Shown: piece after piece, positions 1,741 through 64,000 of the stretch
Numbering within the stretch: position 1 is the stretch's first letter
How the letters are laid out: each line of letters opens with the position of its first letter
Made by a program: the position numbers and the translations under genes
Source: Nitrospirota bacterium
GTDB lineage: Bacteria; Nitrospirota; Nitrospiria; Nitrospirales; Nitrospiraceae
Length of the DNA: 64,000 bases
NCBI GenBank assembly: GCA_039931295.1
Contig: JBDTSF010000178.1
Coordinates: 352 to 64,351, forward strand
Direction of reading: 5' to 3'
Notes under the pieces: generated by a model
What the model was told of the DNA's origin: nothing
Database searches by the model: none
The model's input: the letters and a program-made list of their open reading frames with translations, nothing else

Positions 1741-1866
1741 GCAGGCTGCTCAAAAATTTCGTCCAGCAAGGCCGCAGCGAGTGAGGACCGCAGGCGTACC
1801 CTCTGGGGTACGTTGAGGATCTGAACGCTGCGAGAACGCCGCTGGCGGAATTTTTCAGCAGCCTGC
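1741..1866 (-). repeat. Intergenic imperfect-palindrome repeat, copy A (short form, 126 bp)
   Basis: Inverted termini GCAGGCTGCTCAAAAATTTCG...CGGAATTTTTCAGCAGCCTGC. Aligns over its whole length with copies at 37494, 50745, 56525 and 58757, and in reverse orientation with 5730, 44861 and 54799. Strand convention: + means the plus strand reads GCAGGATGCTGAAAAAGTCC... Confidence 0.9.
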
Positions 1867-1868
1867 CG

Positions 1869-4146: not shown

Positions 4147-5730
4147 GTGAGCACGATTCGCCAGCAACTTGCTTCGCCTTTGCAACTCGTTGTCTTGGCG
4201 ACGGCGGGAATTATTCTGCTGCCGCTCGGCTATGTCACTGCGCAGGCCCTCTCGGCTGATCCGGCCGTTTGGAGCCGCTTGTGGGCAACGCGCATTCCCG
4301 AGCTCCTGTTCAACACCGTCTCGCTGGCCGGCAGCGTGTCGATCATCACGCTAATCCTGGGCGTCTCAACCGCCTGGTTGGTGACACGTGTGGACTTCCC
4401 CGGTCGCCGATTGTGGGAAGGCGCCCTGGTTCTTCCCTTGGCGATGCCGACCTATGTGCTGGCCTATGTGTACTCTTATCTCCTAGGATTCGGCGGCCCC
4501 GTTGAACATCTCTGGCAACTCGTGGCCGGGCCCCAAGCCAGAGTCTTTTCTCCCCATAGTTATTGGGGCGCAACACTGGTTATGGCATTGGACACCTTTC
4601 CCTTCGTTTACCTCCTCAGCCGGAGTGCGCTTCTCAGCATGAATGTGTCGTTTGAAGAAGTGGCGCGGACCAGCGGTGTCTCCCGTCTCTCGACCCTGTG
4701 GCGAGTGACGCTGCCGTTGATGCGCCCTTCGATTGCTGCGGGGATTGCGCTCGTTATTTTGTACGTCGTGTCGGACTTCGGCGCCGTGTCGTTACTCCGC
4801 TACCAAACGCTCACCTACGCCGTGTTCCAGCAGATGACGGGACGGTCCGACAATACGGCAGCGAGCATCTTAAGTCTGCTGTTGGTCGTACTCGCACTGA
4901 TATTCCTGATCACGGAACGATGGTTCCGACAACGAAGCCGGTTTTATCAGACCACCGGCCGCTACCGAGCTCCACAACGGCGCCGCTATGGCTGGCTCGG
5001 CTCCATGGCCGTTACCGGTTATCTCGGATTGATCGTCGGCGCAGCCTTTGCCCTTCCAACCTTGCTCTTAATTCAATGGAGCCTCTCACCTGAGGCGCAG
5101 GCGACGCTCGACAGCCGGTTCTTCGGGTTTGTCTGGAACAGCGGTATTTTGGCCGCCTGTGCCGCCACCGGTGGCGTATTGATCGGCTTGCCGATTGCCT
5201 ATCTCGCCAGCCGCCGCCCGACGCTATTGAACCTAGGCTGCCTGCAAGCCGCCTATGCCGGCTATGTGCTTCCAGGACCAGTGGCAGCATTAGCCGTCCT
5301 TGTTCTATTTACTAAGCTCGCCCCGGTGTTCTATGGCTCCGTGCTCATCCTCATCGTCGCCTATGTGATCCATTTTCTCCCGGCCGGGCTCCAGTCACTG
5401 GAACCGGCGCTCCAGCAGATGTCGCCGAATCTAGAGGAAGTCGCGCGCACGCTAGGCCTTGGAATGCGCAACACCTGGCGACGGGTCACACTGCCGCTTA
5501 TTCGGAATGGATTTGTCGTCGCCTGGGTTTTGATGTTTTTACAGACAATGAAGGAGTTACCTGCCACGCTCTTGTTGCGGCCAGTGGGGTTCGACACCCT
5601 GGCCATTCGCGTCTGGATGGAAGCGAGCGAGGAATATTATCAACTGGCCGCTCCCTCCGCGCTCCTCATTGTCTTGTTGAGTCTCCCGGTACTGGCTTTG
5701 TTGGTCTCAAAAGATTGGCGCGCGGCGTAG
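4147..5730 (+). CDS. Fe(3+) ABC transporter permease (fused double permease, FbpB/AfuB-type)
   Basis: 527 aa, GTG start, two tandem ABC membrane-domain halves (about 12 TM segments). Located between the SBP and ATPase genes. Confidence 0.85.
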   Translation: MSTIRQQLASPLQLVVLATAGIILLPLGYVTAQALSADPAVWSRLWATRIPELLFNTVSLAGSVSIITLILGVSTAWLVTRVDFPGRRLWEGALVLPLAMPTYVLAYVYSYLLGFGGPVEHLWQLVAGPQARVFSPHSYWGATLVMALDTFPFVYLLSRSALLSMNVSFEEVARTSGVSRLSTLWRVTLPLMRPSIAAGIALVILYVVSDFGAVSLLRYQTLTYAVFQQMTGRSDNTAASILSLLLVVLALIFLITERWFRQRSRFYQTTGRYRAPQRRRYGWLGSMAVTGYLGLIVGAAFALPTLLLIQWSLSPEAQATLDSRFFGFVWNSGILAACAATGGVLIGLPIAYLASRRPTLLNLGCLQAAYAGYVLPGPVAALAVLVLFTKLAPVFYGSVLILIVAYVIHFLPAGLQSLEPALQQMSPNLEEVARTLGLGMRNTWRRVTLPLIRNGFVVAWVLMFLQTMKELPATLLLRPVGFDTLAIRVWMEASEEYYQLAAPSALLIVLLSLPVLALLVSKDWRAA

Positions 5731-5900
5731 CAGGATGCTGAAAAAGTCCACCAGCTTCGTTCTCGCATCGTCCAGATCCTCAACGTACCCCATACGAGGA
5801 ATAAGCTGTCTTGGCAGATCGGGGAGGGTGGGTGGAAACTATCACGCCTCGGGTCTTCACTCGCTGCGGCCTTGCTGGACGAACTTTTTGAGCATCCTGC
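5730..5900 (+). repeat. Intergenic imperfect-palindrome repeat, copy B (long form, 171 bp)
   Basis: GCAGGATGCTGAAAAAGTCCACCAGC...GGACGAACTTTTTGAGCATCCTGC. The first G is the last base of the permease TAG stop. Lies inside the ABC operon, 21 nt before the ATPase start. Confidence 0.9.
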
Positions 5901-37493: not shown

Positions 37494-37619
37494 CAGACTG
37501 CTCATAACGATCGTCCAGCAAGGCCGCAGGTGCAGAAGACACCGCAGGCGTACCCTCGGGGTACGTTGAGGATGTCTTCAAGCCGAGAACGAAGCTGGCG
37601 GTCGTTTTCAGCAGTCTGC
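37494..37619 (-). repeat. Intergenic imperfect-palindrome repeat, copy C (short form, about 126 bp)
   Basis: CAGACTGCTCATAACGATCGTCCAGCAAGGCCGCAGG...GGTCGTTTTCAGCAGTCTG. Sits between the T-box terminator and the leuA Shine-Dalgarno sequence. Confidence 0.9.
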
Positions 37620-50544: not shown

Positions 50545-50744
50545 GGGAGTCGCGGCTCCTATTTCCCCACCTGATTCCGGTGAGAATACTATTTGTAAAA
50601 GGGTCGTAAAATAGACCGGTCAGGGTAACAGACGGGAAAGAAATCTGTCAACGTGGTAACAAGCCGCTAGCCAGTTTCAGAAAACGATGGCGGGCTACCA
50701 GAAATCCTCTGGTCCACATGTCTGGGACAACGAGACACAACCTC

Positions 50745-50870
50745 GCAGGGTGCTCAAAAAGTTCGTCCAGCAAAGCCGCAGCGAGTTTAGGCCCGAATCG
50801 TACCCTCTCGGGTAAGTTGAGGGTCTGAACGATGCGAGAACCCCGCTGGCGGACTTTTTCAGCATCCTGC
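50745..50870 (-). repeat. Intergenic imperfect-palindrome repeat, copy E (short form, 126 bp)
   Basis: GCAGGGTGCTCAAAAAGTTCGTCCAGCAAAGCCGCAGCGAG...GGACTTTTTCAGCATCCTGC. Its last base is part of the HIT-gene stop codon (TAG on the minus strand). Confidence 0.9.
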
Positions 50871-51214
50871 TAACCGGGAGGCCAAGCCATGTGTCGTCCG
50901 CCCAAGACATGGAGATGCAGGTGAAACACAGTCTGGCCGCCATGCCTACCGGTATTGATGACGAAACGATACCCGGTATCGGCAATTCCTTTCAGTTTCG
51001 CAATTTGGTTACCGGCCAGCATCAACCGTCCGAGCAGCCCGACATCCGAATCTTCTAGCTCGGCAATCGACGTCACATGTTTCCGAGGGATGACGAGGGT
51101 ATGAGTCGGAGCCTGAGGATTGATATCGTCGAACGCAACGACCAGATCGTCTTCATAGACCAGCGTGGCTGGAATGGTCCTCGCCACGATCTTGCAAAAG
51201 AGGCATTCACTCAT
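50870..51214 (-). CDS. HIT (histidine triad) family protein
   Basis: 114 aa. HLHLHVLGG triad and CLFCKI zinc-site N-terminus. Confidence 0.85.
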   Translation of the reverse strand: MSECLFCKIVARTIPATLVYEDDLVVAFDDINPQAPTHTLVIPRKHVTSIAELEDSDVGLLGRLMLAGNQIAKLKGIADTGYRFVINTGRHGGQTVFHLHLHVLGGRHMAWPPG

Positions 51215-51864
51215 GAGGTGGGTCCTTTTCTCAATCCAGACTTGCCGAACCTAGCTGCCAGCTCCTGATAGATCTCTTGCGGCGTGATGTTGTGGTATCC
51301 CAACGCCACCACGGTATGGAACAACAAATCCGCCGTTTCATACACAATCTCGTCCTTCTTCCCACCCTTCCCGGCAATTGCGACCTCTCCGGCTTCTTCC
51401 ACCACTTTCTTGAGAATTCGATCAACCCCGCCTTCTAAAAGTTTGGAGGTATAGGACTCGCTCGACGGCTGACGCTTCCGCTCCTGGATCATCTGATAGA
51501 GCCGTTCGAGAATCCCCCCCCAGGACTCGGACGTCGTCGTCTCAGGCGAGTCCAAACGAGAAAAGAAGCAGGCTCGCTCTCCCGTGTGACACGTCGGGCC
51601 GACCGGTTCAACCTTCACAAGAAGGGCATCGCCGTCACAGTCGAGAAACAGGTCTTTAAGTTGCAGCTTGTGGCCGGAGGTCTCACCCTTTTCCCATAAC
51701 GTCTGGCGCGACCGGCTCCAGAAATGCACCGACTTCGTCTCAATGGTCTTTTGCAGTGCCTCCTGGTTCATAAAGGCCACCATCAGCACCGTACCATCCC
51801 GCCAATCCTGCACGACCACTGGAATCAGCCCTTGCGCATCAAATGTCAATCGCCCGACATCCAT
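51211..51864 (-). CDS. hisI: Bifunctional phosphoribosyl-AMP cyclohydrolase / phosphoribosyl-ATP diphosphatase
   Basis: 217 aa. HisI half (WSRSRQTLWEKGETSGH...CHTGERACFF) fused to a HisE half (SYTSKLLEGG...EAGE). Confidence 0.95.
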   Translation of the reverse strand: MDVGRLTFDAQGLIPVVVQDWRDGTVLMVAFMNQEALQKTIETKSVHFWSRSRQTLWEKGETSGHKLQLKDLFLDCDGDALLVKVEPVGPTCHTGERACFFSRLDSPETTTSESWGGILERLYQMIQERKRQPSSESYTSKLLEGGVDRILKKVVEEAGEVAIAGKGGKKDEIVYETADLLFHTVVALGYHNITPQEIYQELAARFGKSGLRKGPTS

Positions 51865-52625
51865 TATCGAACCGCCAATCCCTTCTGACGAAGATAGGTT
51901 TTCGCCTCCTGAATCGTGTGAGTCCGGAAATGAAAAATGGACGCGGCGAGTACCGCATCGGCCTTGCCCCTGACAAATCCGTCATAGAGATGCGCCAAAC
52001 TTCCCACGCCGCCCGACGCAATCACCGGAATCGATACAGCCTCTGACACCGCCGCCGTCAACGCGAGGTCATAACCCTGCTGTTGCCCATCTTGATCCAT
52101 GCTCGTGAGCAAAATCTCACCTGCCCCATACCGAGCCATCGTCTTGGCCCATTCAACGACGTCGAGACCTGTGGACTGACGTCCGCCGTGCGTGAACACG
52201 TCCCACCCTGTTGCCGGCTCGGGGCGATGCTTGGCGTCGATCGCCACGACGATACATTGTGTCCCGAATCGTTCGGCCGCTTCTTTCACAAATTCAGGCC
52301 GTTGGACCGCAGCTGTATTGATACTCACCTTGTCCGCGCCCGCGCTCAACAGCGCCCGAATGTCGTCAATTGTTCTCACCCCACCCCCCACAGTCAGCGG
52401 CATGAACACCCGTGCCGCCGTCTGCTCGACCACGTCGATGATAGTCTTGCGATTCTCATGCGAGGCGGTGATATCGAGAAAACAGAGTTCATCGGCCCCT
52501 TCACGATCGTACACGGTGGCCACTTCGACTGGATCTCCCGCATCGCGCAAGTTCACAAAGCTCACGCCTTTGACGACACGGCCGTCCTTGACGTCGAGGC
52601 AGGGAATAATGCGTTTGGTCAACAT
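51864..52625 (-). CDS. hisF: Imidazole glycerol phosphate synthase, cyclase subunit
   Basis: 253 aa ([20 protein letters not shown]..., [14 protein letters not shown]). Confidence 0.95.
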
Positions 52626-52633
52626 CGCAGCGC

Positions 52634-52661
52634 GTGAAACGTGAAATGTGAAACGTGAAAC
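52634..52661. repeat. Tandem heptamer repeat (GTGAAAY)x4
   Basis: GTGAAAC GTGAAAT GTGAAAC GTGAAAC in the 74-bp hisA-hisF spacer. Confidence 0.8.
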
Positions 52662-52699
52662 GAATATGTCAGCAAAGAATTTCTCACATCTGTCCCTTT

Positions 52700-53422
52700 T
52701 CAGTACCGGAGAGCATCAAGAGCTGTCCGATAATCGAGTTTGCCGTCGTAGAGGGCCTTCCCCACAATCGCACCTTCAATCCTTGGGCCGAGCGCCTGCA
52801 CGGCTCGAAGATCCTCAACCCGCGAAATCCCCCCGGAGGCGATCACGGGAAAGGACGACAACTCCACCACTTCCTGCAACGCCGCCAGATTCGGTCCTCC
52901 CAACATACCATCGCGGGCAATATCGGTATAAATCACGGCGCCCAAGGAATGGTCAGTTAATTCCTTGAGCAGATCTGTCGCCTTGGTCTCCGATACCGAT
53001 GTCCACCCCTTGACCGCCACCTTCCCATCACGAGCATCCAGCCCCAACAGAATCTGACGAGGAAACTCCCGGCAGGCCTTCTCCAAAAAAGATCGATCGG
53101 TTAATGCCGCAGTACCGAGCACCACCCTGGCCACACCCGCCCCAAGATAGCGACGCACCGTCTCAATCGAGCGAATCCCTCCCCCGACTTGCACCGCCAC
53201 ACGTACGGCGCGAATGATCGCTTCGATCTGAGGAAGATTGCGCGGCTCTCCGTCCACGGCTCCATTGAGATCCACCACATGAATCAGTGTCGCACCGCCC
53301 TGTTGCCATTGCCTCGCGACAGCCGGAACGTCGTCGGAATAGACCGTTTCAGCCGCCATGTCACCCTGACGCAACCGCACACAGCGGCCATCTTTCAGGT
53401 CAATCGCAGGAATAACGAGCAT
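52700..53422 (-). CDS. hisA: ProFAR isomerase (HisA)
   Basis: 240 aa ([17 protein letters not shown]..., [12 protein letters not shown]). Confidence 0.95.
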
Positions 53423-53440
53423 GCAAAGAACCGCGTCCTC

Positions 53441-54181
53441 TCAATGTTCTACTGCCGTTCCAAACGGAAACTCGTTGAGCAGATGCTCGACTCCATACGC
53501 CGCCAGCTCTTCCGCCGTAACAAACACTCCACGCCGCTGAATGAACCCCATCAAGTCTTCCGTCATTGGCCGCTGCTTTTCGTAGTAATTCCCTTCCCAG
53601 AGAACTTGCCCGTCAGCCGCGACCACCTTGGCCTCAAACCCCACCGTCGCCGGTGGGCTGGCGCCGAAGCGACCACCCACTCGTTCCCGATACACCCGCA
53701 CTTGCCCAATCAGCGAGGCATCCGCCTTCAGCTGTTTCGCCACCGTCACCGCCTGTGATTGACCGGGAGAAGGTTGCAGCGCCGCTTGAGACGTCAGCAC
53801 TCTAGTCGCCTCCCCCGGCGACAGCACGGTCATACCCTGCCGTGTCTTCAACCTGTTCCAGAGCAATTGCGTGACGATATCCCCAGCGCCAGCCGGCACG
53901 GTGACTGTTTGCCTGAGAGGCTGTTCGATATTCGGCGGTACCGCCATCGCCATATCGGACCTGCGAACCTCCGGCGGCACCGAGAAATGCTGATCGGAGA
54001 CATCCCTGACTTGTGGCGTCGCGAGTGTTGTGAACGGGACCAACGCGATGGTTCGAATCTGATAGCGTGATAATTCCGCAGACGCCTTCGTGGTCACTTT
54101 CGACCCGCTACAGCCGACAACCAACAGCACAGCCAATCCCATCAAGGCCATCGACCGACTCGTATTACTCATCGTGCTCAT
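53441..54181 (-). CDS. Hypothetical lipoprotein embedded in the his operon
   Basis: 246 aa, lipobox LLVVGCSG. Its start overlaps the hisH stop (ATGA). Possible DUF799/LpoB-like fold, but I cannot confirm that. Confidence 0.6.
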   Translation of the reverse strand: MSTMSNTSRSMALMGLAVLLVVGCSGSKVTTKASAELSRYQIRTIALVPFTTLATPQVRDVSDQHFSVPPEVRRSDMAMAVPPNIEQPLRQTVTVPAGAGDIVTQLLWNRLKTRQGMTVLSPGEATRVLTSQAALQPSPGQSQAVTVAKQLKADASLIGQVRVYRERVGGRFGASPPATVGFEAKVVAADGQVLWEGNYYEKQRPMTEDLMGFIQRRGVFVTAEELAAYGVEHLLNEFPFGTAVEH

Positions 54182-54786
54182 TTCCAGGATCCAAAGTTTT
54201 TGATCAACCGCAACCCCACGGCTTGGCTCTTTTCAGGATGGAACTGACAAGCCAGGACATTATCTCTCCAGATACTTGACACAAACGGGAGTCCATATGT
54301 GGTTAACGTCGCGACAATCTTCCTGTCGACCGGCTCAACATAATACGAATGCACAAAATACCAATGGTCTCCATCCGCAATCCCCTCGAACAAGGGACAG
54401 GCCCGCTGAATGGCAACCTGATTCCAACCCATGTGAGGAACTTTCAGCGCGGGATCAATCCCAAACCGCCTGACCCTGCCCGGAATGATGCCGAGTCCTT
54501 TGTGAGTGCCAAACTCTTCGCTCTCCGTGAACAACAGTTGGAGCCCTAAACAGATTCCCAGAAATGGCTTTCCCGATTGAATCGCGGTACGAATCGGCTC
54601 CTCTAACCCATACCGCTCGATGTTGGCCATGCAATCGCCAAAGGCTCCCACCCCAGGCAGCACCACATGACTCGCATTGCCGATCACGTGCGAATCCCGC
54701 GTGACCACCGCCTGATGCCCCACCGCCTCGAAAGCTTTGGAGACACTGCGAAGATTGCCCATGCCGTAGTCGATGATCGCAATCAT
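54178..54786 (-). CDS. hisH: Imidazole glycerol phosphate synthase, glutamine amidotransferase subunit
   Basis: 202 aa (MIAIIDYGMGNLRSV..., GICLGLQLL, QFHPEKS). Confidence 0.95.
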   Translation of the reverse strand: MIAIIDYGMGNLRSVSKAFEAVGHQAVVTRDSHVIGNASHVVLPGVGAFGDCMANIERYGLEEPIRTAIQSGKPFLGICLGLQLLFTESEEFGTHKGLGIIPGRVRRFGIDPALKVPHMGWNQVAIQRACPLFEGIADGDHWYFVHSYYVEPVDRKIVATLTTYGLPFVSSIWRDNVLACQFHPEKSQAVGLRLIKNFGSWK

Positions 54787-54798
54787 AACCCCTTCCTA

Positions 54799-55010
54799 GC
54801 AGGATGCTGAAAAAACCCGTCAGCTTCGTTCTCGGCTCATCGAAATCCTCAGCGTACCGAAGAGATTCTCGGAGATCGGAATCTCTGGAGGGGCTTTTCC
54901 ATTTGCCAAGATCAACTGTACAGGCGAACAGTTCCACAAAGTGCGGTGGGTACCTCCTCCGGTTTCGACTCGCCTGCGGCCTTCCTGAACCGCCTTTTTG
55001 AGCATCCTGC
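54799..55010 (+). repeat. Intergenic imperfect-palindrome repeat, copy F (long form, 212 bp)
   Basis: GCAGGATGCTGAAAAAACCCGTCAGC...CCGCCTTTTTGAGCATCCTGC. Ends 12 nt upstream of the hisH ATG, leaving only the SD (GGAAGGGG) between them. Confidence 0.9.
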
Positions 55011-55124
55011 GGGAGCACTCTTCTGTTATGGCACACGGACGGAGTATCGAAATACCATTCTGCTAAGTGGCGTACATCCACAGCCATCTGAAGGCGAGAG
55101 GAAAACCTCTTGTGGCACTCATAC

Positions 55125-55679: not shown

Positions 55680-56456
55680 CTAAATGCCTGCGTACCATTC
55701 GTAACCTTGATCGTCCTCCCAATACCCGCCCTTTCCGCCGGCAGTGCCAGAGAGGGTCTCCACCAATTCGACCATGATCACATACTTGGCCTGCTTGTAG
55801 CCGAGCTGCTGTTCGAAGCGGAGTCGAATCGGGGCGCCATGGGGGATGTCTAACGGGGTCCCATTCAACTCGTACGCCAAGATCGTTTGCGGATGATAGC
55901 AATCGGCCAGGGCCATGCTCTCGTAGTATGGCACCCCGTCCTCATCGACATCGGCACAATGAAAGACCGCATATCGGGCGGTCGGCAACGGTTGAACCTC
56001 GCGCATGAGATCGCCGAGTGGGACCCCGGTCCACTTGCCGATCGCACTCCAGCCTTCGACACAGTCATGCCGGGTGATTTGTGTCCGCGATGGCAATTCT
56101 TTCAGCGCCGCGAGCGACCAACTCATCGGGGTCTGAACCAATCCACCAACCTCCACCGTCCATTCTGAAAAATTCTTCGCCACATGTTCAGCATAGTCTT
56201 CTGTGCCCGGATCGGTATTGCCGTTTGATGGAAACACCTTCGAGATGTCGGCGTCCCCATATTCTTTGGCAAGAGCATTCGTGGGCGTGACCGCTCGTTG
56301 CACTCGTTCAGTCAGCTTCTCCGCCTTGCTTAAGATCGAAGGGAGCCAACTGCTCTGCGACAGATTATCGCAGCCGGCGAGGGCCACAAGACTTGCCGCG
56401 CCCAACGTCCCTTTCAAAAACTGTCTACGTTCCATCGCTCGTTCATGTGAATCCAT
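55680..56456 (-). CDS. Periplasmic molybdopterin-dependent oxidoreductase (SUOX fold; MsrP/YedY-like)
   Basis: Tat signal (ERRQFLKGTLGAASLVALAGC) and a Mo-binding core with TRHDCVEGWSAIGKWTGVPL. 258 aa, with no dimerisation domain. Confidence 0.8.
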   Translation of the reverse strand: MDSHERAMERRQFLKGTLGAASLVALAGCDNLSQSSWLPSILSKAEKLTERVQRAVTPTNALAKEYGDADISKVFPSNGNTDPGTEDYAEHVAKNFSEWTVEVGGLVQTPMSWSLAALKELPSRTQITRHDCVEGWSAIGKWTGVPLGDLMREVQPLPTARYAVFHCADVDEDGVPYYESMALADCYHPQTILAYELNGTPLDIPHGAPIRLRFEQQLGYKQAKYVIMVELVETLSGTAGGKGGYWEDDQGYEWYAGI

Positions 56457-56524
56457 GATGCCTCCATTTCAGTGGCTTGACCGAATGTCCAAAAAAGAAA
56501 ATTGAAAGGATGACAACTTGAGTC

Positions 56525-56717
56525 GCAAGACGTTCAAAGAAGTCGTCCAGCAAGGCCGCAGGTGAATCGAAACCGGAGGCGTACCCCCGGGGGCGCACGG
56601 TGCGACGAATAAGGAGCACCAAGTCTGTGCGCGCCGCCGAGTGGTGAGGCGGCCGGGTCCCCGTTGAGGATCTGAACGATGCGAGAACGAAGCTGGCGGC
56701 TCCTTTCAACGTCCTGC
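56525..56717 (-). repeat. Intergenic imperfect-palindrome repeat, copy G (long form, 193 bp)
   Basis: GCAAGACGTTCAAAGAAGTCGTCCAGCAAGGCCGCAGG...CTCCTTTCAACGTCCTGC. Its terminal repeat supplies the last three codons and the TGA stop of the cytochrome b gene. Confidence 0.85.
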
Positions 56718-57671
56718 CTCATGCTTCACGACAAACCATCCGGTCACCATCGACCGGATGTTGTTGAAGAATCCGGTCAGGATCACTTCCAACACATGAA
56801 TCACAATAAACCCGACGAAGGTAAAACAGGCGATAAAGTGAATCGTCCGCGCCGCCTGCCGCCCACCGAAGATCGTGAGCAGCCAGGGGAACGCCGTATC
56901 GATCGTCGGCGACATCGTGAGGCCAGTCAAAACGATCACGGGCGCCACAATAAATAGAATGACTATATAGGCGAACTTCTGCAGCACGTTGTACCGCTTG
57001 GCCTCCTCCCCTTTGGGGTGCCGGAAGACAATGTGATCCTTGACGGTCTTGCCGATGCCACGCAGGTCCTTGCCTGTCGGAGCCAAGTCGCGCGTGACAT
57101 GTCGGCTCAACCACGCATAGGCCATAAAGAACAGGCCGTTGATGACAAGGAGCCACGCGAAAAACAGGTGCCACTGCCGGCCCATCGCCAGAACTTTAGC
57201 GCTCGGAATGGTCGCCCAAGCAGGGAAGGCCCGGCGCTTGCCGTCCGAATAGCCGAGCACTCCTGTCGTGTCGAACTTATAGCCAAGAATAGTGGTGATG
57301 CCGCGCATCTCGCCGCTTTCGGTCTTCATGGGGCGGATCGAGAGCAACGGCTGGTCTCGATCGGAACGATCACCCCAATAGAGGGCGGGATGCGCGTTGA
57401 AGATTTGGAGTCCACTCATAATCAGGATGATGAGAATCGGGACGTTGAGCCAATGGCTGATTCGTACCGGTAGTCGATGGCGGTAGACCCTCTCAAGCAT
57501 CGGAGTTGAAGCAGGTCGTGCGGCTGAGGCGGCATCCTGACTTGGAGCCAAACCAGCAAGAACTGAGGGCTCCTTGAGCGGATACGGTTCAGACCTCATC
57601 GCGAGTTCCGAGACCGGCTTGTTCTCCCTACCTTTCCTGACTCCAATTCCTTCATGAGTAAGTGAGGCCAT
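56706..57671 (-). CDS. Membrane di-haem cytochrome b (Ni/Fe-hydrogenase b-type / cytochrome b561-like family)
   Basis: 321 aa. HRLPVRISHWLNVPILIILIMSGLQIF and four or more TM helices with conserved His. About 70-aa soluble N-terminal extension. Confidence 0.75.
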   Translation of the reverse strand: MASLTHEGIGVRKGRENKPVSELAMRSEPYPLKEPSVLAGLAPSQDAASAARPASTPMLERVYRHRLPVRISHWLNVPILIILIMSGLQIFNAHPALYWGDRSDRDQPLLSIRPMKTESGEMRGITTILGYKFDTTGVLGYSDGKRRAFPAWATIPSAKVLAMGRQWHLFFAWLLVINGLFFMAYAWLSRHVTRDLAPTGKDLRGIGKTVKDHIVFRHPKGEEAKRYNVLQKFAYIVILFIVAPVIVLTGLTMSPTIDTAFPWLLTIFGGRQAARTIHFIACFTFVGFIVIHVLEVILTGFFNNIRSMVTGWFVVKHEAGR

Positions 57672-57760
57672 AATCCTGTCTCCTCTGGCTTGAAATTACC
57701 TGCCTGCTGTTTAGTCGACACCCAGTCTCGATTCTTACAACTGTTGGAGAGCAGACACAG

Positions 57761-57796
57761 AACAGCCTGCGGTCGGTGTGAACCGAGCGCAGGCTG
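57761..57796 (-). terminator. Terminator-like hairpin after the Met-rich peptide gene
   Basis: Minus strand ACAGCCTGCG-c-TCGGT-TCAC-ACCGA-c-CGCAGGCTGT (15 bp paired) followed by TCTGTGTCTG. Confidence 0.5.
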
Positions 57797-57827
57797 TGAG
57801 GATCGATGACGGAAGATCAGATGAAGC

Positions 57828-58091
57828 CTACTTCCCCATGGCTCCCTTCATCTCACCTTTCATCTCGTCTTTCATTCCCTTCATGTCGCCCTTCATCTCA
57901 TCGTGTTTGGCTTTCATCTTGTCCTTCATCTCACCTTTCATATCGCCCTTCATCCCCTTCATGTCATCTTTCATGCCCTTCATGTCACCCTTCATCTCAT
58001 CCTTCATTTTCCCCATATCCTCGGCAAATGAAAGGGAACTGAACCCGACCAGACACATGACTGCGATGACTGACAGCATAATCTTCTTCAT
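57828..58091 (-). CDS. Secreted methionine/lysine-rich repeat peptide (MxKDx-type pentapeptide repeats)
   Basis: 87 aa from the ATG at 58091 (preceded by AAGGAGG). Signal peptide MKKIMLSVIAVMCLVGFSSLSFA. The 64-aa mature part is built from MKGDM/MKDEM units and has 16 Met. The upstream part of the ORF-track call (to 58274) is rejected. Confidence 0.7.
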   Translation of the reverse strand: MKKIMLSVIAVMCLVGFSSLSFAEDMGKMKDEMKGDMKGMKDDMKGMKGDMKGEMKDKMKAKHDEMKGDMKGMKDEMKGEMKGAMGK

Positions 58092-58170
58092 AGGAAACCT
58101 CCTTGTGAACAGTGAAGAAATGGACACCGGGAAAATACCCGGCGCCCCCTGACGAACGAAGTCAACCAAG

Positions 58171-58632
58171 CTACTCATGTACCTTAGAGAGCTTCCTGAT
58201 CTCCGGCCAGTTTGCGTTTGCCTTACTGATATAGCCGGGGATATCCAACACCCATTGGGAACGGACTGTCTCACTATAGTTCAGGTAGAGCTTATCGCCG
58301 ACCACGGTAAATGCGTCTGGATCGATGACAGCCTTGTACCCCTTGGCCATGCCGAAAGCGCAATAGCCTCCGTACTGTGGGGCAAACTTGTCCGGGTTGG
58401 CTGTAAACGCGTCACGATTGGCTGCCGTAGAGAAGTAAAAGACCGAGCCTTGGTACTCTGCATGGAACTCCGGCAAGCCCGTCACCGGCTTCATCTCAAC
58501 GAAATAGGCGACTGGGTCGTAGCCGCTAATCGCCACACCGTCGCGTTCGAAGTACTCGCCAGCAAAGGCCGGTGTAGCAAAGACTACCGCCAGCAGAAGT
58601 GTCAGAAACCGATGGCTCACGAGTTTCTTCAT
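58171..58632 (-). CDS. Exported YHS-domain protein, paralog 1
   Basis: Signal peptide ...ATPAFA. ISGYDPVAYF, PQYGGYCAFGMAKG and GDKLYLN motifs are shared with the ORF at 60659-61120. ATG 58632 is preferred over the ORF-track start 58746. Confidence 0.75.
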   Translation of the reverse strand: MKKLVSHRFLTLLLAVVFATPAFAGEYFERDGVAISGYDPVAYFVEMKPVTGLPEFHAEYQGSVFYFSTAANRDAFTANPDKFAPQYGGYCAFGMAKGYKAVIDPDAFTVVGDKLYLNYSETVRSQWVLDIPGYISKANANWPEIRKLSKVHE

Positions 58633-58756
58633 TGCAACACCTGATAAAGGATGCATAACAATCAGTCGGACAAGAAGGTTGAATCTTACATAAAGAAGCA
58701 GGTCCTCGTTTCCCGGCAAGCAGCGGTCAGGCGCACCCACGCCCATCGTTTTCTTT

Positions 58757-58877
58757 CATGATGTTCAAAGCGATCTTCCGGCAAGGCCGCCGCAAGCGAA
58801 GAGGCGAGGCGTACGCGTCGGTACCTTGAGCTTCTGAGCGATGCGAGAACGCAGCGGGAAGCTGTTTTCAACATCCT
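58757..58877 (-). repeat. Intergenic imperfect-palindrome repeat, copy H (short form, about 121 bp, most diverged)
   Basis: CATGATGTTCAAAGCGATCTTCCGGCAAGGCCGCCGCAAGCG...GCTGTTTTCAACATCCTG. Lies between the hydrolase and YHS paralog 1. Confidence 0.8.
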
Positions 58878-58942
58878 GTTCATTCGTACGCGACGTTCAC
58901 ATAGACCTTAATCGCCAACACGCGGCGATGGGACTGCTTCGA

Positions 58943-59938
58943 TCACTTACCTGGCAGCCACCGGTCAAGGAAGTCGCGCATGAACATTGCAATTTCATCG
59001 CCCATATCCTCCAGCGCAAAGTGACCACTGTCGAGAAGGTACAACTTAGCGTTGGGAAGATCGTGCAGGTACGCATACGCGCCATCAGCTGGGAATATCT
59101 CATCATTCTGTCCCCACACGATGAGAGTCGGCGGCCGCCGTGTACGAAAGAACTGCTGGAATTGCGGGTACAGCGCAACGTTCGAACCATAGTCCTTGAA
59201 CAAGTCGAGCATGATCTCATCGATGCCAGGCCTGCCGAGCAGCGCTTGATCATGGAGCCAGGTGTCAGGGGAGATGCGTGACACATCACGGACACCCTTG
59301 ACGTACTGGGATTTCGTGGCTTCAGGAGTAAGCCCTACGCGTAGGGCCTCGCGATGCTGCTGCGAGCCGTCGGCCCAGTAGGCCTTAATCGGATTCCAGA
59401 AGTCCTTCAGCCCGTCCTCGTAGGCGTTGCCATTCTGTATCACCAGGGCAGTAACTCTCTCTGGATGCTTGAGCGCCAATCGGTAACCGACCGGCGCGCC
59501 GTAATCCTGCACGTACAAGCTATAGTTTTTCAGCCCAATTGTGTTCGTGAATTTGTCAATGACTCCCGCCAGGTTATCGAATGTATAATTGAACTCATTC
59601 ACCGATGGCGCTGAACTCTGCCCGAAGCCCGGATAATCCGGTGCAACCAGATGGAATCGATCCGCCAGCGCCGGGATCAGGTTGCGGAACATGTGTGACG
59701 ACGTGGGAAAGCCGTGCAGCAGTAAGATCGTTGGCTTCGACGGATCGCCCGCTTCGCGGTAGAAGATGTCGAGACCGTCAATATTGATCGTGTTGTAGGT
59801 TACTTGAGTTGTGCGTTGATCAGGACTGACGCGGTTGGCGGTGGGCTTCTGGGCTTGCCCATCAATGGGAAAGAACCAAAACGCTAATGAAAGCAGCACG
59901 ATCAACCACAATTGTGAAGATTTTTTGTGTATGTTCAT
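58943..59938 (-). CDS. Exported alpha/beta hydrolase (epoxide hydrolase / haloalkane dehalogenase-like, Asp nucleophile)
   Basis: Signal peptide. [16 protein letters not shown] oxyanion region and [10 protein letters not shown] nucleophile elbow. Confidence 0.8.
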
Positions 59939-59967: not shown

Positions 59968-60579
59968 CTACTGTTTTCGAAGCACCGGATATCCGAACGA
60001 GTATATCCACTTGTCGGCGTCAACAGCATTGCGCGGGGCGAGTTCCCTCGCAGGCATATGACAGGGGATACAATCTGTCTTGTAGTTTTTTGAGGCGGTG
60101 TGTGTGAGATCGTCGGCATTAAACAGCGACCACGCCCAGCCATCGCCCCACAGGCTGGATTCCTTGTACCGACCCTTGGTGTCCCTGATCAATACGAACC
60201 ATCCTTTGATTGTCGTCCCATGACCGACTGCAGGCCCTGTGGTCATCGCCATGGTTTCGGCATTGAGGAGTTCCTTGACCAGCACCGCGCCGTCCGGAAA
60301 CCGACGATGCGTACGATAGTAGGCAATGGTTTCCGGTTGGGTGTAGACGACATGGTACTCGTGCACACCGGGGCCCATCTTCTCGAGCTGCTCTCCCGTG
60401 TGTGCGTGCGCCCATGTGCCAAGCGTGGGCCATTCGGTGTAGCCCTCAGGAACCCTGATGGCGCCGGTGTTTACGTCGACATTGGGCGCAAAGGGTTTCT
60501 CCTCCCTGGCCATCACTCCTCCTGCCAGGCCCAACGCGGCCAGTATTAAAACAAATGCTGTGAGCGTTCCGTGTTTCAT
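59968..60579 (-). CDS. Cytochrome P460 / c'-beta family haem protein
   Basis: Signal peptide ...GGVMA and a single C-terminal CIPCH haem site preceded by WAWSLFNADD, the layout typical of the P460 fold. ATG 60579 is preferred over 60600. Confidence 0.7.
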   Translation of the reverse strand: MKHGTLTAFVLILAALGLAGGVMAREEKPFAPNVDVNTGAIRVPEGYTEWPTLGTWAHAHTGEQLEKMGPGVHEYHVVYTQPETIAYYRTHRRFPDGAVLVKELLNAETMAMTTGPAVGHGTTIKGWFVLIRDTKGRYKESSLWGDGWAWSLFNADDLTHTASKNYKTDCIPCHMPARELAPRNAVDADKWIYSFGYPVLRKQ

Positions 60580-60610
60580 CTGTGTTTCCTTGCCTCCCAT
60601 ATTGCGGTCA

Positions 60611-61481: not shown

Positions 61482-62210
61482 TTACGCGACCCTCTTCCGA
61501 CCCTCCAGCGTGCGCTCCACAGCGGCACGCACTCGCTCTCGAGCCCGGTGGAGCCGGACGTACAAATTGGTTTCGGTAATCTTCAACAGCTCGCAGACTT
61601 CCTTGACCTCAACACCTTCTACACCGCGGAGAATCAACACGTCTTTCAAGGTCGTCGGCAGGGCATCGACCGCATGCTGCATCGCCTGGACCGCCTGCCG
61701 GCTCGCCAGCAATTTCTCCGGGGTCTGATCGTCCCACGGTTGCGGCGGAAAGGCCCAATGCCCCGCCCATTCGCCGCTCTGATGGAAGCGGGACGGATCG
61801 ATTGCTTCGTCGTTGTCGTCATCGTAAGACTCAAAGGCCGAGAAGGTCGTATGCCGTTTCTCGCGCACACCGCGATCCTTGGCCTTATGGATGAGAATCC
61901 CGCAGACCCAGGTGCGAAGGGACGACCGGCCTTCGAACCGATTCAGGCTTTCGATCACTGCCATCCAGGTGTCCTGCACGACCTCTTCAGCCACTTCCCG
62001 ATCAGCCACATAGCCCATAGTCATTCGAACGAGCGTGCTGTGGTGCTGATTCACCAGTTCATCGAAGGCCCCTTCGTCACCGCGCCTCAGCCTCGAAAGG
62101 AGTGTGTCCTCGGCCCTCGTGGGACCGGGAGACTTGAGCGCCGTCGAGCACCCACTGATCGATGGGCTGTGACCAATGGACTCCATATAGGTGCTGGCGT
62201 CTGCGTTCAT
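61482..62210 (-). CDS. ECF-type RNA polymerase sigma factor with a long sigma2-sigma4 linker
   Basis: Region 2 (FDELVNQHHSTLVRMTMGYV...AEEVVQDTWMAV) and region 4 (VLILRGVEGVEVKEVCELLKITETNLYVRLHRARERV). About 60-aa acidic/Trp-rich linker. The start overlaps the STAS stop (ATGA). No anti-sigma ORF lies downstream. Confidence 0.85.
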   Translation of the reverse strand: MNADASTYMESIGHSPSISGCSTALKSPGPTRAEDTLLSRLRRGDEGAFDELVNQHHSTLVRMTMGYVADREVAEEVVQDTWMAVIESLNRFEGRSSLRTWVCGILIHKAKDRGVREKRHTTFSAFESYDDDNDEAIDPSRFHQSGEWAGHWAFPPQPWDDQTPEKLLASRQAVQAMQHAVDALPTTLKDVLILRGVEGVEVKEVCELLKITETNLYVRLHRARERVRAAVERTLEGRKRVA

Positions 62211-62479
62211 GACCGGCCTCCAATTCGTAGCAACTCCGTGACAAAGACTGGAGCGCTCATAAGGGTGACTTGTGATTGGGGGAAGTTATTCAGGACCTCC
62301 ACCCCTTTGGCATCGATGAAGTCGACATGGGAACAATCCAGATGCACAGCTTTCTCCTGTCGAAGATACGACCGACATTCACCATCCAGGAGAGCGGCCC
62401 ACTGATCCGTGATTTTTCCTTCGAGCTTGATAAGCACGTCGCGTCTGCTTTCTTGAACTTTTGTAATCTTGAGCATCAT
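62207..62479 (-). CDS. STAS-domain protein (anti-sigma-antagonist fold), apparently non-phosphorylatable
   Basis: About 90 aa from MMLKITKV (AAGGGAG before the ATG). LDCSHVDFIDAKGVEVL corresponds to the STAS DLS.V.FiDSsG segment, with Ala in place of the phospho-Ser. Confidence 0.6.
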   Translation of the reverse strand: MMLKITKVQESRRDVLIKLEGKITDQWAALLDGECRSYLRQEKAVHLDCSHVDFIDAKGVEVLNNFPQSQVTLMSAPVFVTELLRIGGRS

Positions 62480-62518: not shown

Positions 62519-62536
62519 CAGCAACAGCGATGCCAG
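62519..62536 (-). promoter_or_regulatory. Sigma-54 (-24/-12) promoter upstream of the STAS-ECF pair
   Basis: Minus strand CTGGCAT-CGCTG-TTGCTG, i.e. TGGCAT-N5-TTGCT against the consensus TGGCAC-N5-TTGC(A/T). About 40 nt upstream of the STAS ATG and directly downstream of a sigma-54 activator gene. Confidence 0.6.
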
Positions 62537-62644
62537 ACTAATTGCGTGGCAGACAGAACAGCGTAAGTATTTGATGTGGAAAGATGAGGTGAGGAGTTTT
62601 CAAGATGGAGACGCAGGGAGCCAACAGGAATAAATTCCTAACAT

Positions 62645-62670
62645 ATTGGGAGCGTCCCAATTAGTTGGGA
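62645..62670. promoter_or_regulatory. Candidate enhancer (UAS) for the sigma-54 activator
   Basis: Palindrome ATTGGGA-GCG-TCCCAAT (62645-62661) plus a third TTGGGA half-site (62665-62670), about 110-135 bp upstream of the -24 element. Confidence 0.3.
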
Positions 62671-62761: not shown

Positions 62762-64000
62762 TTACCTCTCACGTTTCACCCGCGTAATCCCGAGCTTCTT
62801 CATACGGGCTTCGAGTGTCGTGGCATTGAGGCCGAGGATTTTGGCTGCGCCTTTCTCGCCGCTGACGCGCCAGTTGGTCTGTTCCAGCACATCGACGATA
62901 TGCTGGCGTTCCATCTCTTCCAAGGTTGGCGTCTTGCCCACGCCGGCCTTGCCGGGGGATTGCGAGAGCCAGTCGATTGGTTCCAGTTCAGGCCCCTCGC
63001 TCAAGATTATGGCACGTTCGATCACATGTTCCAGCTCGCGGATGTTCCCCGGCCATGGATAGCGCTGAAGCGCCGTCATCATCTGTTCCGGAATCCGATC
63101 GATCTTCTTCCCGAGGTTTGCCGCAAATTTACGCACGAAGTATTGCACCAGCAAGGGGATATCGTCCGCTCGCTCGCGCAACGCCGGGAGGTGGATCGGG
63201 AATACGTTCAGACGGTAATACAAATCAGGGCGATAGTGACCGGTCTTCGATTGTTGTTCGAGGTCCCGGTTTGTGGCAGCAATCACCCGCACGTTGACTT
63301 TGAACGTCTGCGTCCCGCCCACCCGCTCGAACTCCCCTTCTTGCAACACGCGCAGCAACTTGGATTGCAGATCGAGCGGCAGCTCCCCGATTTCGTCAAG
63401 AAAGATAGTTCCCTTGTCGGCCAGCTCAAAGCGGCCCATCTTTTTCGCAAGCGCACCGGTGAAGGCACCCTTTTCGTGACCGAACAGTTCGCTTTCGATC
63501 AAGCCGGCTGGAATGGCTGCGCAGTTGACTTTGACGAGGGGGCGATCCTTCCGCTGGCTCAGATTATGGATGGCGCGCGCAATCAGCTCCTTCCCTGTGC
63601 CGGTCTCGCCGGTAAGGAGCACGGTCGAGTCAGTCGGGGCTACCCGTTCGACGTTCTTGAGCACCTTTTTCAACGAGGTCGAACCACCGATCAACTCTTC
63701 GAAGTTGTGGGTGCCCTTGATTTCCTCTTGCAAATAGACGTTCTGGGCCTCAAGCCGAGCCTTCTCCTGCTCCATCAACACTTGCTCGGTAATGTCGAGG
63801 AACATCGTGCGCGTGTAGGTGCCGCCGGGATCGGGCCGCGACCACCACTTCATCCAGAGCGGTTTGCCGTTATCTTTGCGCCGCAGTTCCAGTACCACGC
63901 CGCTGGTGTCGATGCCCTTACCAACCGAGGCAAACGCCTCTTTCAGGCGCCGTTGTGCGTCGGGTGTATTGGGAACGAAATCCCTGCCGTAGAGGCCGTT
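62762..64000 (-). CDS. Sigma-54-dependent Fis-family transcriptional activator with PAS sensor (5' end outside the window)
   Basis: AAA+ core (GETGTGKE, GAFTGA, ELFGHEKGAFTGA), C-terminal HTH (AAKILGLNATTLEARMKKLGI) and a PAS-like segment upstream. The reading frame stays open from 63898 to the window edge. Confidence 0.9.
   Translation of the reverse strand, partial: NGLYGRDFVPNTPDAQRRLKEAFASVGKGIDTSGVVLELRRKDNGKPLWMKWWSRPDPGGTYTRTMFLDITEQVLMEQEKARLEAQNVYLQEEIKGTHNFEELIGGSTSLKKVLKNVERVAPTDSTVLLTGETGTGKELIARAIHNLSQRKDRPLVKVNCAAIPAGLIESELFGHEKGAFTGALAKKMGRFELADKGTIFLDEIGELPLDLQSKLLRVLQEGEFERVGGTQTFKVNVRVIAATNRDLEQQSKTGHYRPDLYYRLNVFPIHLPALRERADDIPLLVQYFVRKFAANLGKKIDRIPEQMMTALQRYPWPGNIRELEHVIERAIILSEGPELEPIDWLSQSPGKAGVGKTPTLEEMERQHIVDVLEQTNWRVSGEKGAAKILGLNATTLEARMKKLGITRVKRER

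Follow-up and report, generated by a model that had tools for sequence, protein, structure and literature searches.

Does Nitrospira possess a periplasmic defence in which the methionine (Met) residues of a small secreted peptide are oxidised and reduced again, as is known from Proteobacteria? The question is raised by three genes in a stretch of 64,000 nt (the window) from a Nitrospirota bacterium (GCA_039931295.1, contig JBDTSF010000178.1, 352 to 64,351 of the forward strand). They lie on the minus strand, from 58091 down to 55680, and code for a Met-rich peptide, a cytochrome b and a molybdenum (Mo) enzyme. The source organism is a Nitrospira; the closest genomes are metagenome-assembled genomes of Nitrospira with about 90% protein identity. 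An initial annotation had likened the ensemble of Met peptide, YedY-like reductase and membrane cytochrome under an extracytoplasmic function (ECF) sigma factor to the MrpX/YedY1 system. The three genes, a repeat element and the ECF sigma factor were found at the coordinates it had assigned, the 16 Met residues in the 64-aa mature peptide were confirmed, and by orthology and conserved synteny the likeness to MrpX/YedY1 is the best reading. We consider it probable that the locus is the Nitrospira orthologue of the module which combines a Met peptide, a cytochrome b and a short YedY-like enzyme (MrpX-YedY1Z1, BcrXQP, C3566-C3568), and that it serves as a defence by Met redox cycling. The same kind of module is already known in Brucella, uropathogenic Escherichia coli (UPEC) and Azospira; distinct here are the regulatory wiring and the peptide repeat. 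A literature search found no paper describing the module in Nitrospira.

Along its full length the Mo-enzyme shares 55% identity (E 3e-101), and the cytochrome b 48% (E 7e-97), with the counterparts encoded in a Rhizobium plasmid operon annotated as 'pentapeptide MXKDX repeat protein, cytochrome b/b6, molybdopterin-dependent oxidoreductase'. In Rhizobium and Microvirga an ECF sigma factor and NrsF (PF06532) are encoded divergently from the operon of MXKDX peptide, PF01292 cytochrome b/b6 and Mo-oxidoreductase, which in Microvirga runs on into msrA and msrB. Paraburkholderia has SigF/NrsF with cytochrome b, Mo-enzyme and Met peptide, Rahnella a two-component system with cytochrome b, Mo-enzyme and MXKDX protein, and E. 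coli IncF plasmids carry cytochrome b, Mo-enzyme and Met peptide. A protein search of plasmids (404 records) resolved three bands of identity to the window Mo-enzyme: a Rhizobiales type with 51-57%, a type from enterobacteria, Rahnella and Paraburkholderia with 34-38%, and enzymes annotated as MsrP with 24-32% at partial coverage. The trio is present on many conjugative plasmids, i.e., in 76 Escherichia and 21 Klebsiella records; on the E. coli IncF plasmid CP091400.1 (L050, 2822-4480) it adjoins IS26.

The Mo-enzyme belongs to the YedY-like branch of its fold. Its Mo ligand, Cys132, resides in the motif QITRHDCVEGWS, which aligns with the CVEAWS motif of YedY. The best sequence match among solved structures is E. 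coli YedY (1XDQ), and a family profile searched against the PDB finds YedY first (E 8e-30), with SorA at E 6e-19. An AlphaFold2 model built on a diverse alignment reached a pLDDT (predicted local distance difference test) of 82.9 and its top eight fold matches are all YedY; a first model from 18 close homologues was unusable (pLDDT 43.5). The best NCBIfam match is the MsrP model NF003767 with 97.6 bits versus a cutoff of 207, and the identity to E. coli MsrP is 24% (258 aa versus 334 aa). Judged from these results the enzyme is YedY-like and not an MsrP equivalog; its membrane partner comes from a different protein family. An invariant G-C29-D follows the twin-arginine (RR) signal and is common to the enzymes of Nitrospira, Rhizobiales, Arenimonas and UPEC, which suggests that the Mo-enzyme is probably a lipoprotein. 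An Asp at position +2 is an inner-membrane retention signal in E. coli. Such a lipid anchor would hold the Mo-enzyme beside the cytochrome.

The cytochrome b has among its invariant residues His73, 168, 278 and 292 and would act as the electron donor on the quinol side. It shows no similarity to MsrQ (PF01794; BLASTP E 0.38) and shares 25-26% identity with its counterparts in Paraburkholderia and on the E. coli plasmid. In the comparison set, 44 genome loci which encode relatives of the Mo-enzyme (L numbers in this text, apart from L045 and L050), the cytochrome b and Mo genes are neighbours in every locus whose contig covers that side, separated by 7-26 nt in 19 loci and by 89-460 nt in 12. 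A physical partnership is further supported by proteins in which a PF01292 and a Mo domain are fused, and which form several independent clusters among the relatives.

The peptide is the third partner. Its signal of 23 residues is of the Sec type and ends in SFA. The mature part consists of 16 Met, 18 Lys, 11 Gly, 10 Asp, 6 Glu, 2 Ala, 1 His and no Cys (counted from the sequence), i.e., 25% Met and 55% charged residues, arranged in MKGD, MKGE and MKGMKDE units with M-x2-M and M-x3-M spacing. The underlying DNA is a tandem array with periods of 12 and 21 nt, encoding MKG(D/E) and MKGMKD(D/E) units. No other open reading frame of the window has at least 10 Met in a stretch of 40 residues. A perfect AGGAGG lies 6 nt ahead of the ATG and is kept in 21 loci; in an alignment of these 21 the Shine-Dalgarno sequence AGGAGGT and the signal peptide are nearly invariant. 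The mature part varies from 31 to 92 residues and from 14 to 35% Met, and its repeats drift in number and order. Such a constant start with drifting repeats fits a translated, presumably disordered product which is selected for its composition. Of the Nitrospira-lineage loci, 31 extend 650 nt or more 5' of the cytochrome b gene, and in 27 of these a Met-rich reading frame occupies this position; none was seen in the three loci outside Nitrospira (two from Arenimonas, one from a betaproteobacterium). Pfam and NCBIfam searches gave no significant match to the peptide, the sole match being a sub-threshold WXG100. Matches to ExtJ and ExtP of the selenite/tellurite operon remained below cutoff and probably reflect signal peptide and composition, and a general PF01292 similarity. 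Another flavour of the peptide, MMKDGKMMMM..., with 32 Met in 92 mature residues, occurs in L018 (4523-4870) and L021 (1976-2311); it has a sub-threshold match to NF040942 (ExtJ, selenite/tellurite operon).

Past the peptide stop codon a hairpin is found in 17 of 19 loci, often with a T-rich tail next to it. Two of its 13 base pairs show compensatory changes, the others are conserved in sequence. Rfam has nothing above threshold for the hairpin or for the dispersed repeat element dealt with below. The hairpin is likely a partial terminator or a stabiliser of RNA, with the effect that more peptide than enzyme would be made.

How does this module compare with those known? The Brucella system, BcrXQP with BcrS/AbcS, shares the order of peptide, membrane subunit and periplasmic Mo subunit, with an ECF sigma factor nearby (PMC8315932). 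Brucella itself was compared by description, by way of the Rhizobiales plasmid operons which have exactly this layout. The bcrXQP genes are co-transcribed, induced by hypochlorous acid (HOCl) and required for survival of HOCl, and BcrX is a homologue of MrpX, annotated MXKDX (PMC8315932). The regulators differ. Brucella uses an ECF16 SigF-type sigma factor with the membrane anti-sigma NrsF/DUF1109, whereas the ECF factor of Nitrospira is unrelated, stands behind a sigma-54 promoter and is accompanied by a STAS protein and, among relatives, by a soluble ZAS anti-sigma. BcrX is built of MXKDX pentapeptides, whereas the Nitrospira unit is MKG(D/E). The initial annotation had taken an MxKDx repeat as a peculiarity of the window; the opposite applies, as MXKDX is the annotation of BcrX and the Nitrospira peptide is the one that fails the corresponding model, TIGR02953.

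In UPEC strain CFT073 RefSeq lists c3566 as 'cytochrome b/b6 domain-containing protein' and c3567 as a 'molybdopterin-dependent oxidoreductase' of 247 aa; c3568 codes for a secreted Met-rich peptide of 80 aa. Over 242 aa the window enzyme and C3567 have 34% identity (E 2e-44), and they share the RR signal, the G-C-D lipobox, the motif ITRHxCVEGWSAIGKW and a GGYWED tail. These genes constitute an oxidative-stress operon regulated by OrhK/OrhR, C3568 has been called an MrpX homologue, and c3566-c3567 protect against peroxide and killing by macrophages (PMC8550376). A yedYZ-mrpX operon in UPEC strain 536 is cited by Melnyk et al. (PMC4436054). UPEC differs in its two-component control, in that the peptide gene comes last, in the location on a pathogenicity island with co-transcription of hemolysin genes, and in that the reported response is to peroxide. 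In RefSeq c3566 (L045, 30552-31150) is marked as frameshifted, although deletion phenotypes are reported in PMC8550376.

The ingredients are the same in Azospira suillum MrpX-YedY1-YedZ1: the secreted peptide is charged and contains about 20% Met, the YedY-type enzyme is exported by Tat, and a membrane partner and an ECF sigma factor complete the set. Yet the order is membrane subunit, Mo-enzyme, peptide, and the regulators are SigF/NrsF (PMC4436054). Chlorite and hypochlorite induce MrpX, which becomes oxidised in vivo and within an hour is reduced again (PMC4436054). The Paraburkholderia operon (SigF/NrsF, cytochrome b/b6, Mo-enzyme, Met peptide) has the Azospira layout as published and is built from the same families as the window. 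Its sub-branch, to which we infer that Azospira, compared by description, belongs, has cytochromes b of about 200-216 aa without the long loop of the Nitrospira and Rhizobiales proteins.

With E. coli MsrP-MsrQ (YedYZ) the module has in common a periplasmic, Tat-exported Mo-enzyme of the sulfite oxidase (SUOX) fold with a CVE(G/A)WS motif and a haem-containing membrane partner. MsrQ, however, is of the ferric-reductase type (PF01794) as opposed to the PF01292 cytochrome b of Nitrospira, the gene order is reversed, and where C29 aligns, MsrP has no lipobox Cys. The initial annotation had stressed the hydrogenase-type cytochrome b as a difference. This is correct with respect to MsrQ; it does not hold for the Met-peptide systems, in that UPEC c3566, the Rhizobiales MXKDX operons and the Paraburkholderia SigF/NrsF operon all have a cytochrome b of this same family, PF01292.

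Gene content, orthology, conservation and fold thus lead to a redox cycle for which substrate, direction of electron flow and inducer are stated conditionally. The peptide would be made in large amounts owing to its strong Shine-Dalgarno sequence, the hairpin past its stop codon probably limiting read-through into the enzyme genes. Exported by Sec, the intrinsically disordered chain would present 16 exposed Met thioethers to periplasmic oxidants, likely hypochlorite or chlorite-derived species and possibly peroxides, and be converted to Met-sulfoxide. The Tat-exported, probably lipid-anchored Mo-enzyme would reduce the sulfoxides back to Met with electrons passing from the quinol pool via the di-haem cytochrome b. 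Oxidation and re-reduction of the peptide have genetic support from the relatives and, for MrpX, also in vivo support (PMC4436054, PMC8315932, PMC8550376).

Several observations weigh against this assignment. The peptide has no match to TIGR02953, the MXKDX model with a cutoff of 41 bits, even at E <= 10, compared with 64.5 bits for the Rhizobium and Microvirga peptides and 35.2 for UPEC C3568. In a pairwise BLASTP with a proteobacterial MXKDX peptide an insignificant E of 13 was obtained, and tblastn of the peptide against plasmids found nothing, probably due to masking of low complexity. With NCBIfam, tblastn and BLASTP all silent, the peptide is treated as equivalent to the MrpX type by composition and position, not by demonstrable homology. 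That Azospira YedZ1 and Brucella BcrQ would be PF01292 proteins is reasoned from the look-alike operons, which use one. Likewise by analogy, the short clade would function as Met-sulfoxide reductase, and the module would be induced and active in Nitrospira. An alignment of 21 regions upstream of the peptide gene revealed one conserved block and no convincing ECF-type -35/-10 pair, and control of the peptide operon by the ECF factor is presumed from gene order alone. Finally, 4 of the 31 Nitrospira loci hold the cytochrome b-Mo pair without a peptide, as do Agrobacterium and Paroceanicella. Pairs of this kind, in these four loci and in several proteobacterial operons, mean that the Mo-enzyme has a role which is not dependent on the peptide.

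This last point bears on an alternative in which the cytochrome b-Mo pair carries out general periplasmic Met-sulfoxide repair like MsrPQ and the peptide is a one-way decoy, a hydrophilin or a chaperone-like protectant. Besides the peptide-less pairs, to which Arenimonas adds another case, the UPEC phenotype upon single deletion of c3566 or c3567 is in line with it (PMC8550376). Against it speak the tight linkage of the peptide to the pair, seen in 27 of the 31 Nitrospira loci and in Alpha-, Beta- and Gammaproteobacteria alike, and the re-reduction of MrpX in vivo within an hour (PMC4436054). The peptide-less operons make this alternative plausible; on balance we regard it as unlikely.

To the same degree we doubt that the peptide is mainly a periplasmic buffer of Cu(I)/Ag(I) whose thioethers are kept reduced by the cytochrome b-Mo pair under copper stress. 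The density and the M-x2-M and M-x3-M spacing of its Met residues would suit a copper ligand, and E. coli MsrPQ has been linked with copper stress, where it repairs CusF, a Met-rich chaperone (PMC9302797). The peptide is also flanked by proteins with a YHS domain. This domain also occurs in copper ATPases. The mature peptide, however, has a single His and no Cys, and it has no significant Pfam or NCBIfam match, hence none to a copper-protein family. Copper genes are absent from 50-64 kb of the window, and the annotated 55-64 kb contain neither cop, cus or pco genes nor a multicopper oxidase, so the Cu(I)-binding option, which the initial annotation had kept as an alternative, obtains no support from gene context. 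The relatives are moreover under HOCl- or peroxide-responsive regulators and are linked to msrA/msrB (PMC8315932; PMC8550376). Copper buffering could coexist with Met redox cycling.

PF01292 cytochromes serve oxidising as well as reducing enzymes. Highly improbable is, nevertheless, an oxidative Mo-enzyme, i.e., a sulfite or other sulfur dehydrogenase which passes electrons via cytochrome b to quinones, next to an unrelated peptide: the SUOX fold, weak matches to SorA, SorT and SoxC models and a cytochrome family compatible with either direction would allow it, yet these matches reach 33-38 bits versus cutoffs of 420-600, a Pfam scan of the 258 aa shows no second or dimerisation domain, the partner is not a cytochrome c, YedY is 11 orders of magnitude ahead of SorA in the profile search and heads the fold matches, and the gene context is one of Met-sulfoxide repair (msrA and msrB in Microvirga).

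The coordinates of the module and of the features around it are collected in Table 1.

Table 1. Features of the Met-peptide module and its surroundings in the window
Feature	Position	Strand	Remarks
Met-rich secreted peptide, 87 aa	57828..58091	-	23-aa Sec signal peptide and 64-aa mature part
Membrane b-type cytochrome, 321 aa	56706..57671	-	PF01292 (Ni_hydr_CYTB; cytochrome b/b6 or b561 type), E 7.5e-22
Short Tat-exported SUOX-fold molybdoenzyme, YedY-like branch, 258 aa	55680..56456	-	PF00174 (Oxidored_molyb), E 6e-32; twin-arginine signal
GC-rich stem-loop followed by pyrimidine-rich tail	57762..57797	-	Between peptide and cytochrome b genes; fold z-score -5.1
Conserved block GTTGACTT...GGGCGC...	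58122..58166	-	5' of peptide gene; overlaps hairpin in this window
Cytochrome b-Mo spacer, 249 nt	56457..56705		Inserted dispersed repeat, core 56523-56717, with terminal inverted repeats
YHS-domain (seleno)protein family member, signal peptide	58171..58746	-	NF041384, 151 bits; 79 nt upstream of peptide gene
ECF sigma factor, not SigF/ECF16-like	61482..62210	-	Start 3.4 kb upstream of peptide; upstream of module in at least 13 loci
STAS-domain protein	62207..62479	-	Translational coupling to ECF gene (ATGA overlap)
Sigma-54 promoter TGGCAT-N5-TTGCT (TGGCATCGCTGTTGCT)	62520..62535	-	5' of STAS-ECF genes; kept in 10 loci
Two palindromes, TCCCAATATGTTAGGA and TCCCAACTAATTGGGA	62636..62670		100-135 nt further upstream of sigma-54 promoter; kept in 10 loci
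Sigma-54-dependent activator (AAA+, HTH_8)	62762..64000	-	Gene passes window end

The regulatory genes set the Nitrospira module apart. The ECF factor is only 22% identical to the Rhizobium SigF-type sigma factor, and NrsF is missing from the window. The sigma-54 promoter is the single match in the 64 kb, where 0.12 would be expected, and the pattern of the palindromes has 4 matches versus 0.16 expected; they are probably binding sites for the sigma-54 activator. A full-length relative of this activator has 890 aa with PAS-GAF-GAF-PAS sensor domains. At least 13 loci have the block of activator, STAS and ECF genes 5' of the module, and in L007, L010 and L016 a short anti-sigma gene alone separates this block from the peptide gene. 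A zf-HC2 (ZAS) anti-sigma of 99 aa is encoded directly 3' of the ECF gene in at least 15 related loci. Tblastn of these ZAS proteins against the window gave no match, and the coding strand 3' of the ECF gene holds no credible remnant of a decayed anti-sigma. As these relatives encode ZAS directly after ECF, its absence here is a local loss in this genome. The missing anti-sigma, listed in the initial annotation as a difference between the systems, is thus real for this genome and does not extend to the system.

In the proposed cascade the PAS/GAF activator would act on the sigma-54 promoter, from which STAS and ECF (and ZAS, where present) would be transcribed; the ECF sigma factor in turn is presumed to drive the peptide operon. 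The conserved block 5' of the peptide gene, which occurs once in the window, may hold the promoter of the peptide. A sigma-70 scan upstream of the peptide gene found nothing, and the Brucella SigF motif TGTAAC-N-GCGAAA is absent there. A different ECF sigma factor (34-36% identity) is located upstream of the module in two Nitrospira loci, L011 (916-1455) and L015 (317-1160), in the latter with a zf-HC2-like anti-sigma of its own; the regulators have been swapped within the genus.

HrpL-type ECF sigma factors are transcribed from sigma-54 promoters and have type III secretion as their regulon. The likeness to Nitrospira is that the ECF factor is switched on by transcription, with a sigma-54 activator on upstream palindromes; the differences are an unrelated regulon and a control layer of STAS and, in relatives, ZAS which Nitrospira adds. 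It is unusual for one ECF factor to combine transcription by sigma-54 with a STAS partner and, among relatives, also a ZAS anti-sigma. The papers on the relatives treat the short Mo-enzyme/cytochrome pair simply as 'MsrPQ/YedYZ homologues'. We tentatively propose two things jointly, and as a pair they are possible but still doubtful: the short lipoprotein Mo-enzyme and the PF01292 cytochrome b would form a separate family of two-subunit Met-sulfoxide reductases with a membrane subunit which is not orthologous to MsrQ, and a hitherto undescribed cascade of PAS/GAF sigma-54 activator, STAS, ECF and ZAS would drive the module in Nitrospira.

Four genes are placed between the ECF and the peptide gene. 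The YHS gene next to the peptide has this position immediately 5' of it in about 10 related loci, which is frequent, not constant, and its product may contribute to the module as another periplasmic redox protein. It is followed upstream by a gene for an alpha/beta-hydrolase with weak haloalkane-dehalogenase-like matches (58943-59938), a cytochrome P460 family gene (59968-60600) and a second secreted YHS paralogue (NF041384; 60659-61171); both YHS proteins have a GGYC motif. The same cassette of four, YHS-P460-hydrolase-YHS, is found in L030. There a partial second copy of the Mo-enzyme gene (380-865) is located 5' of the cassette, which suggests that some genomes have undergone tandem duplication or rearrangement of the module.

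The repeat between the cytochrome b and Mo genes, noted in the initial annotation, is indeed present; its core extends into the final codons of the cytochrome b gene. The element belongs to a family with at least seven sites in the window (1750-1867, 5730-5900, 37511-37601, 50743-50872, 54797-55011, 56523-56717 and 58754-58879), whose copies are intergenic, about 130-260 nt long, in both orientations and bounded by terminal inverted repeats; the family resembles a miniature inverted-repeat transposable element or a repetitive extragenic palindromic element. The close relatives L003, L006, L032, L033, L038 and L042 have the same insertion, and it is missing from the 19 loci with the short gap of 7-26 nt. 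As the same element occupies the long gaps of these close relatives, it is a lineage-specific insertion.

On its other side the module adjoins a histidine biosynthesis cluster (hisH, hisA, hisF, hisIE) with dnaG (50870-54786). In L038 it is placed between hisB and hisH, which suggests that it was inserted into the his region. Metatranscriptome runs had 5-6% of the sampled words in common with the locus.

What would such a module mean for Nitrospira? Defence by Met redox cycling, studied among Proteobacteria in pathogens and in perchlorate reducers, is extended by it to the phylum Nitrospirota, and there it is kept in most of the related genomes inspected. For annotation, the name of canonical MsrPQ does not fit the enzymes linked to Met peptides in UPEC, Rhizobiales and Nitrospira, in which a PF01292 cytochrome b is the partner of a short YedY-like enzyme with a probable lipid anchor. 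The cascade from sigma-54 to ECF is a concrete circuit and open to experiment. Nitrite oxidisers are classically inhibited by chlorate because it is reduced to chlorite. The cascade may sense self-made oxidants, e.g., chlorite or hypochlorite which arise when nitrite oxidoreductase reduces chlorate; if this is true, the module would be part of the tolerance to chlorate and chlorite in nitrite-oxidising Nitrospira. A periplasmic sink for chlorine oxidants would bear on the sensitivity of nitrite oxidisers to chlorate and on their behaviour in chlorinated water systems.

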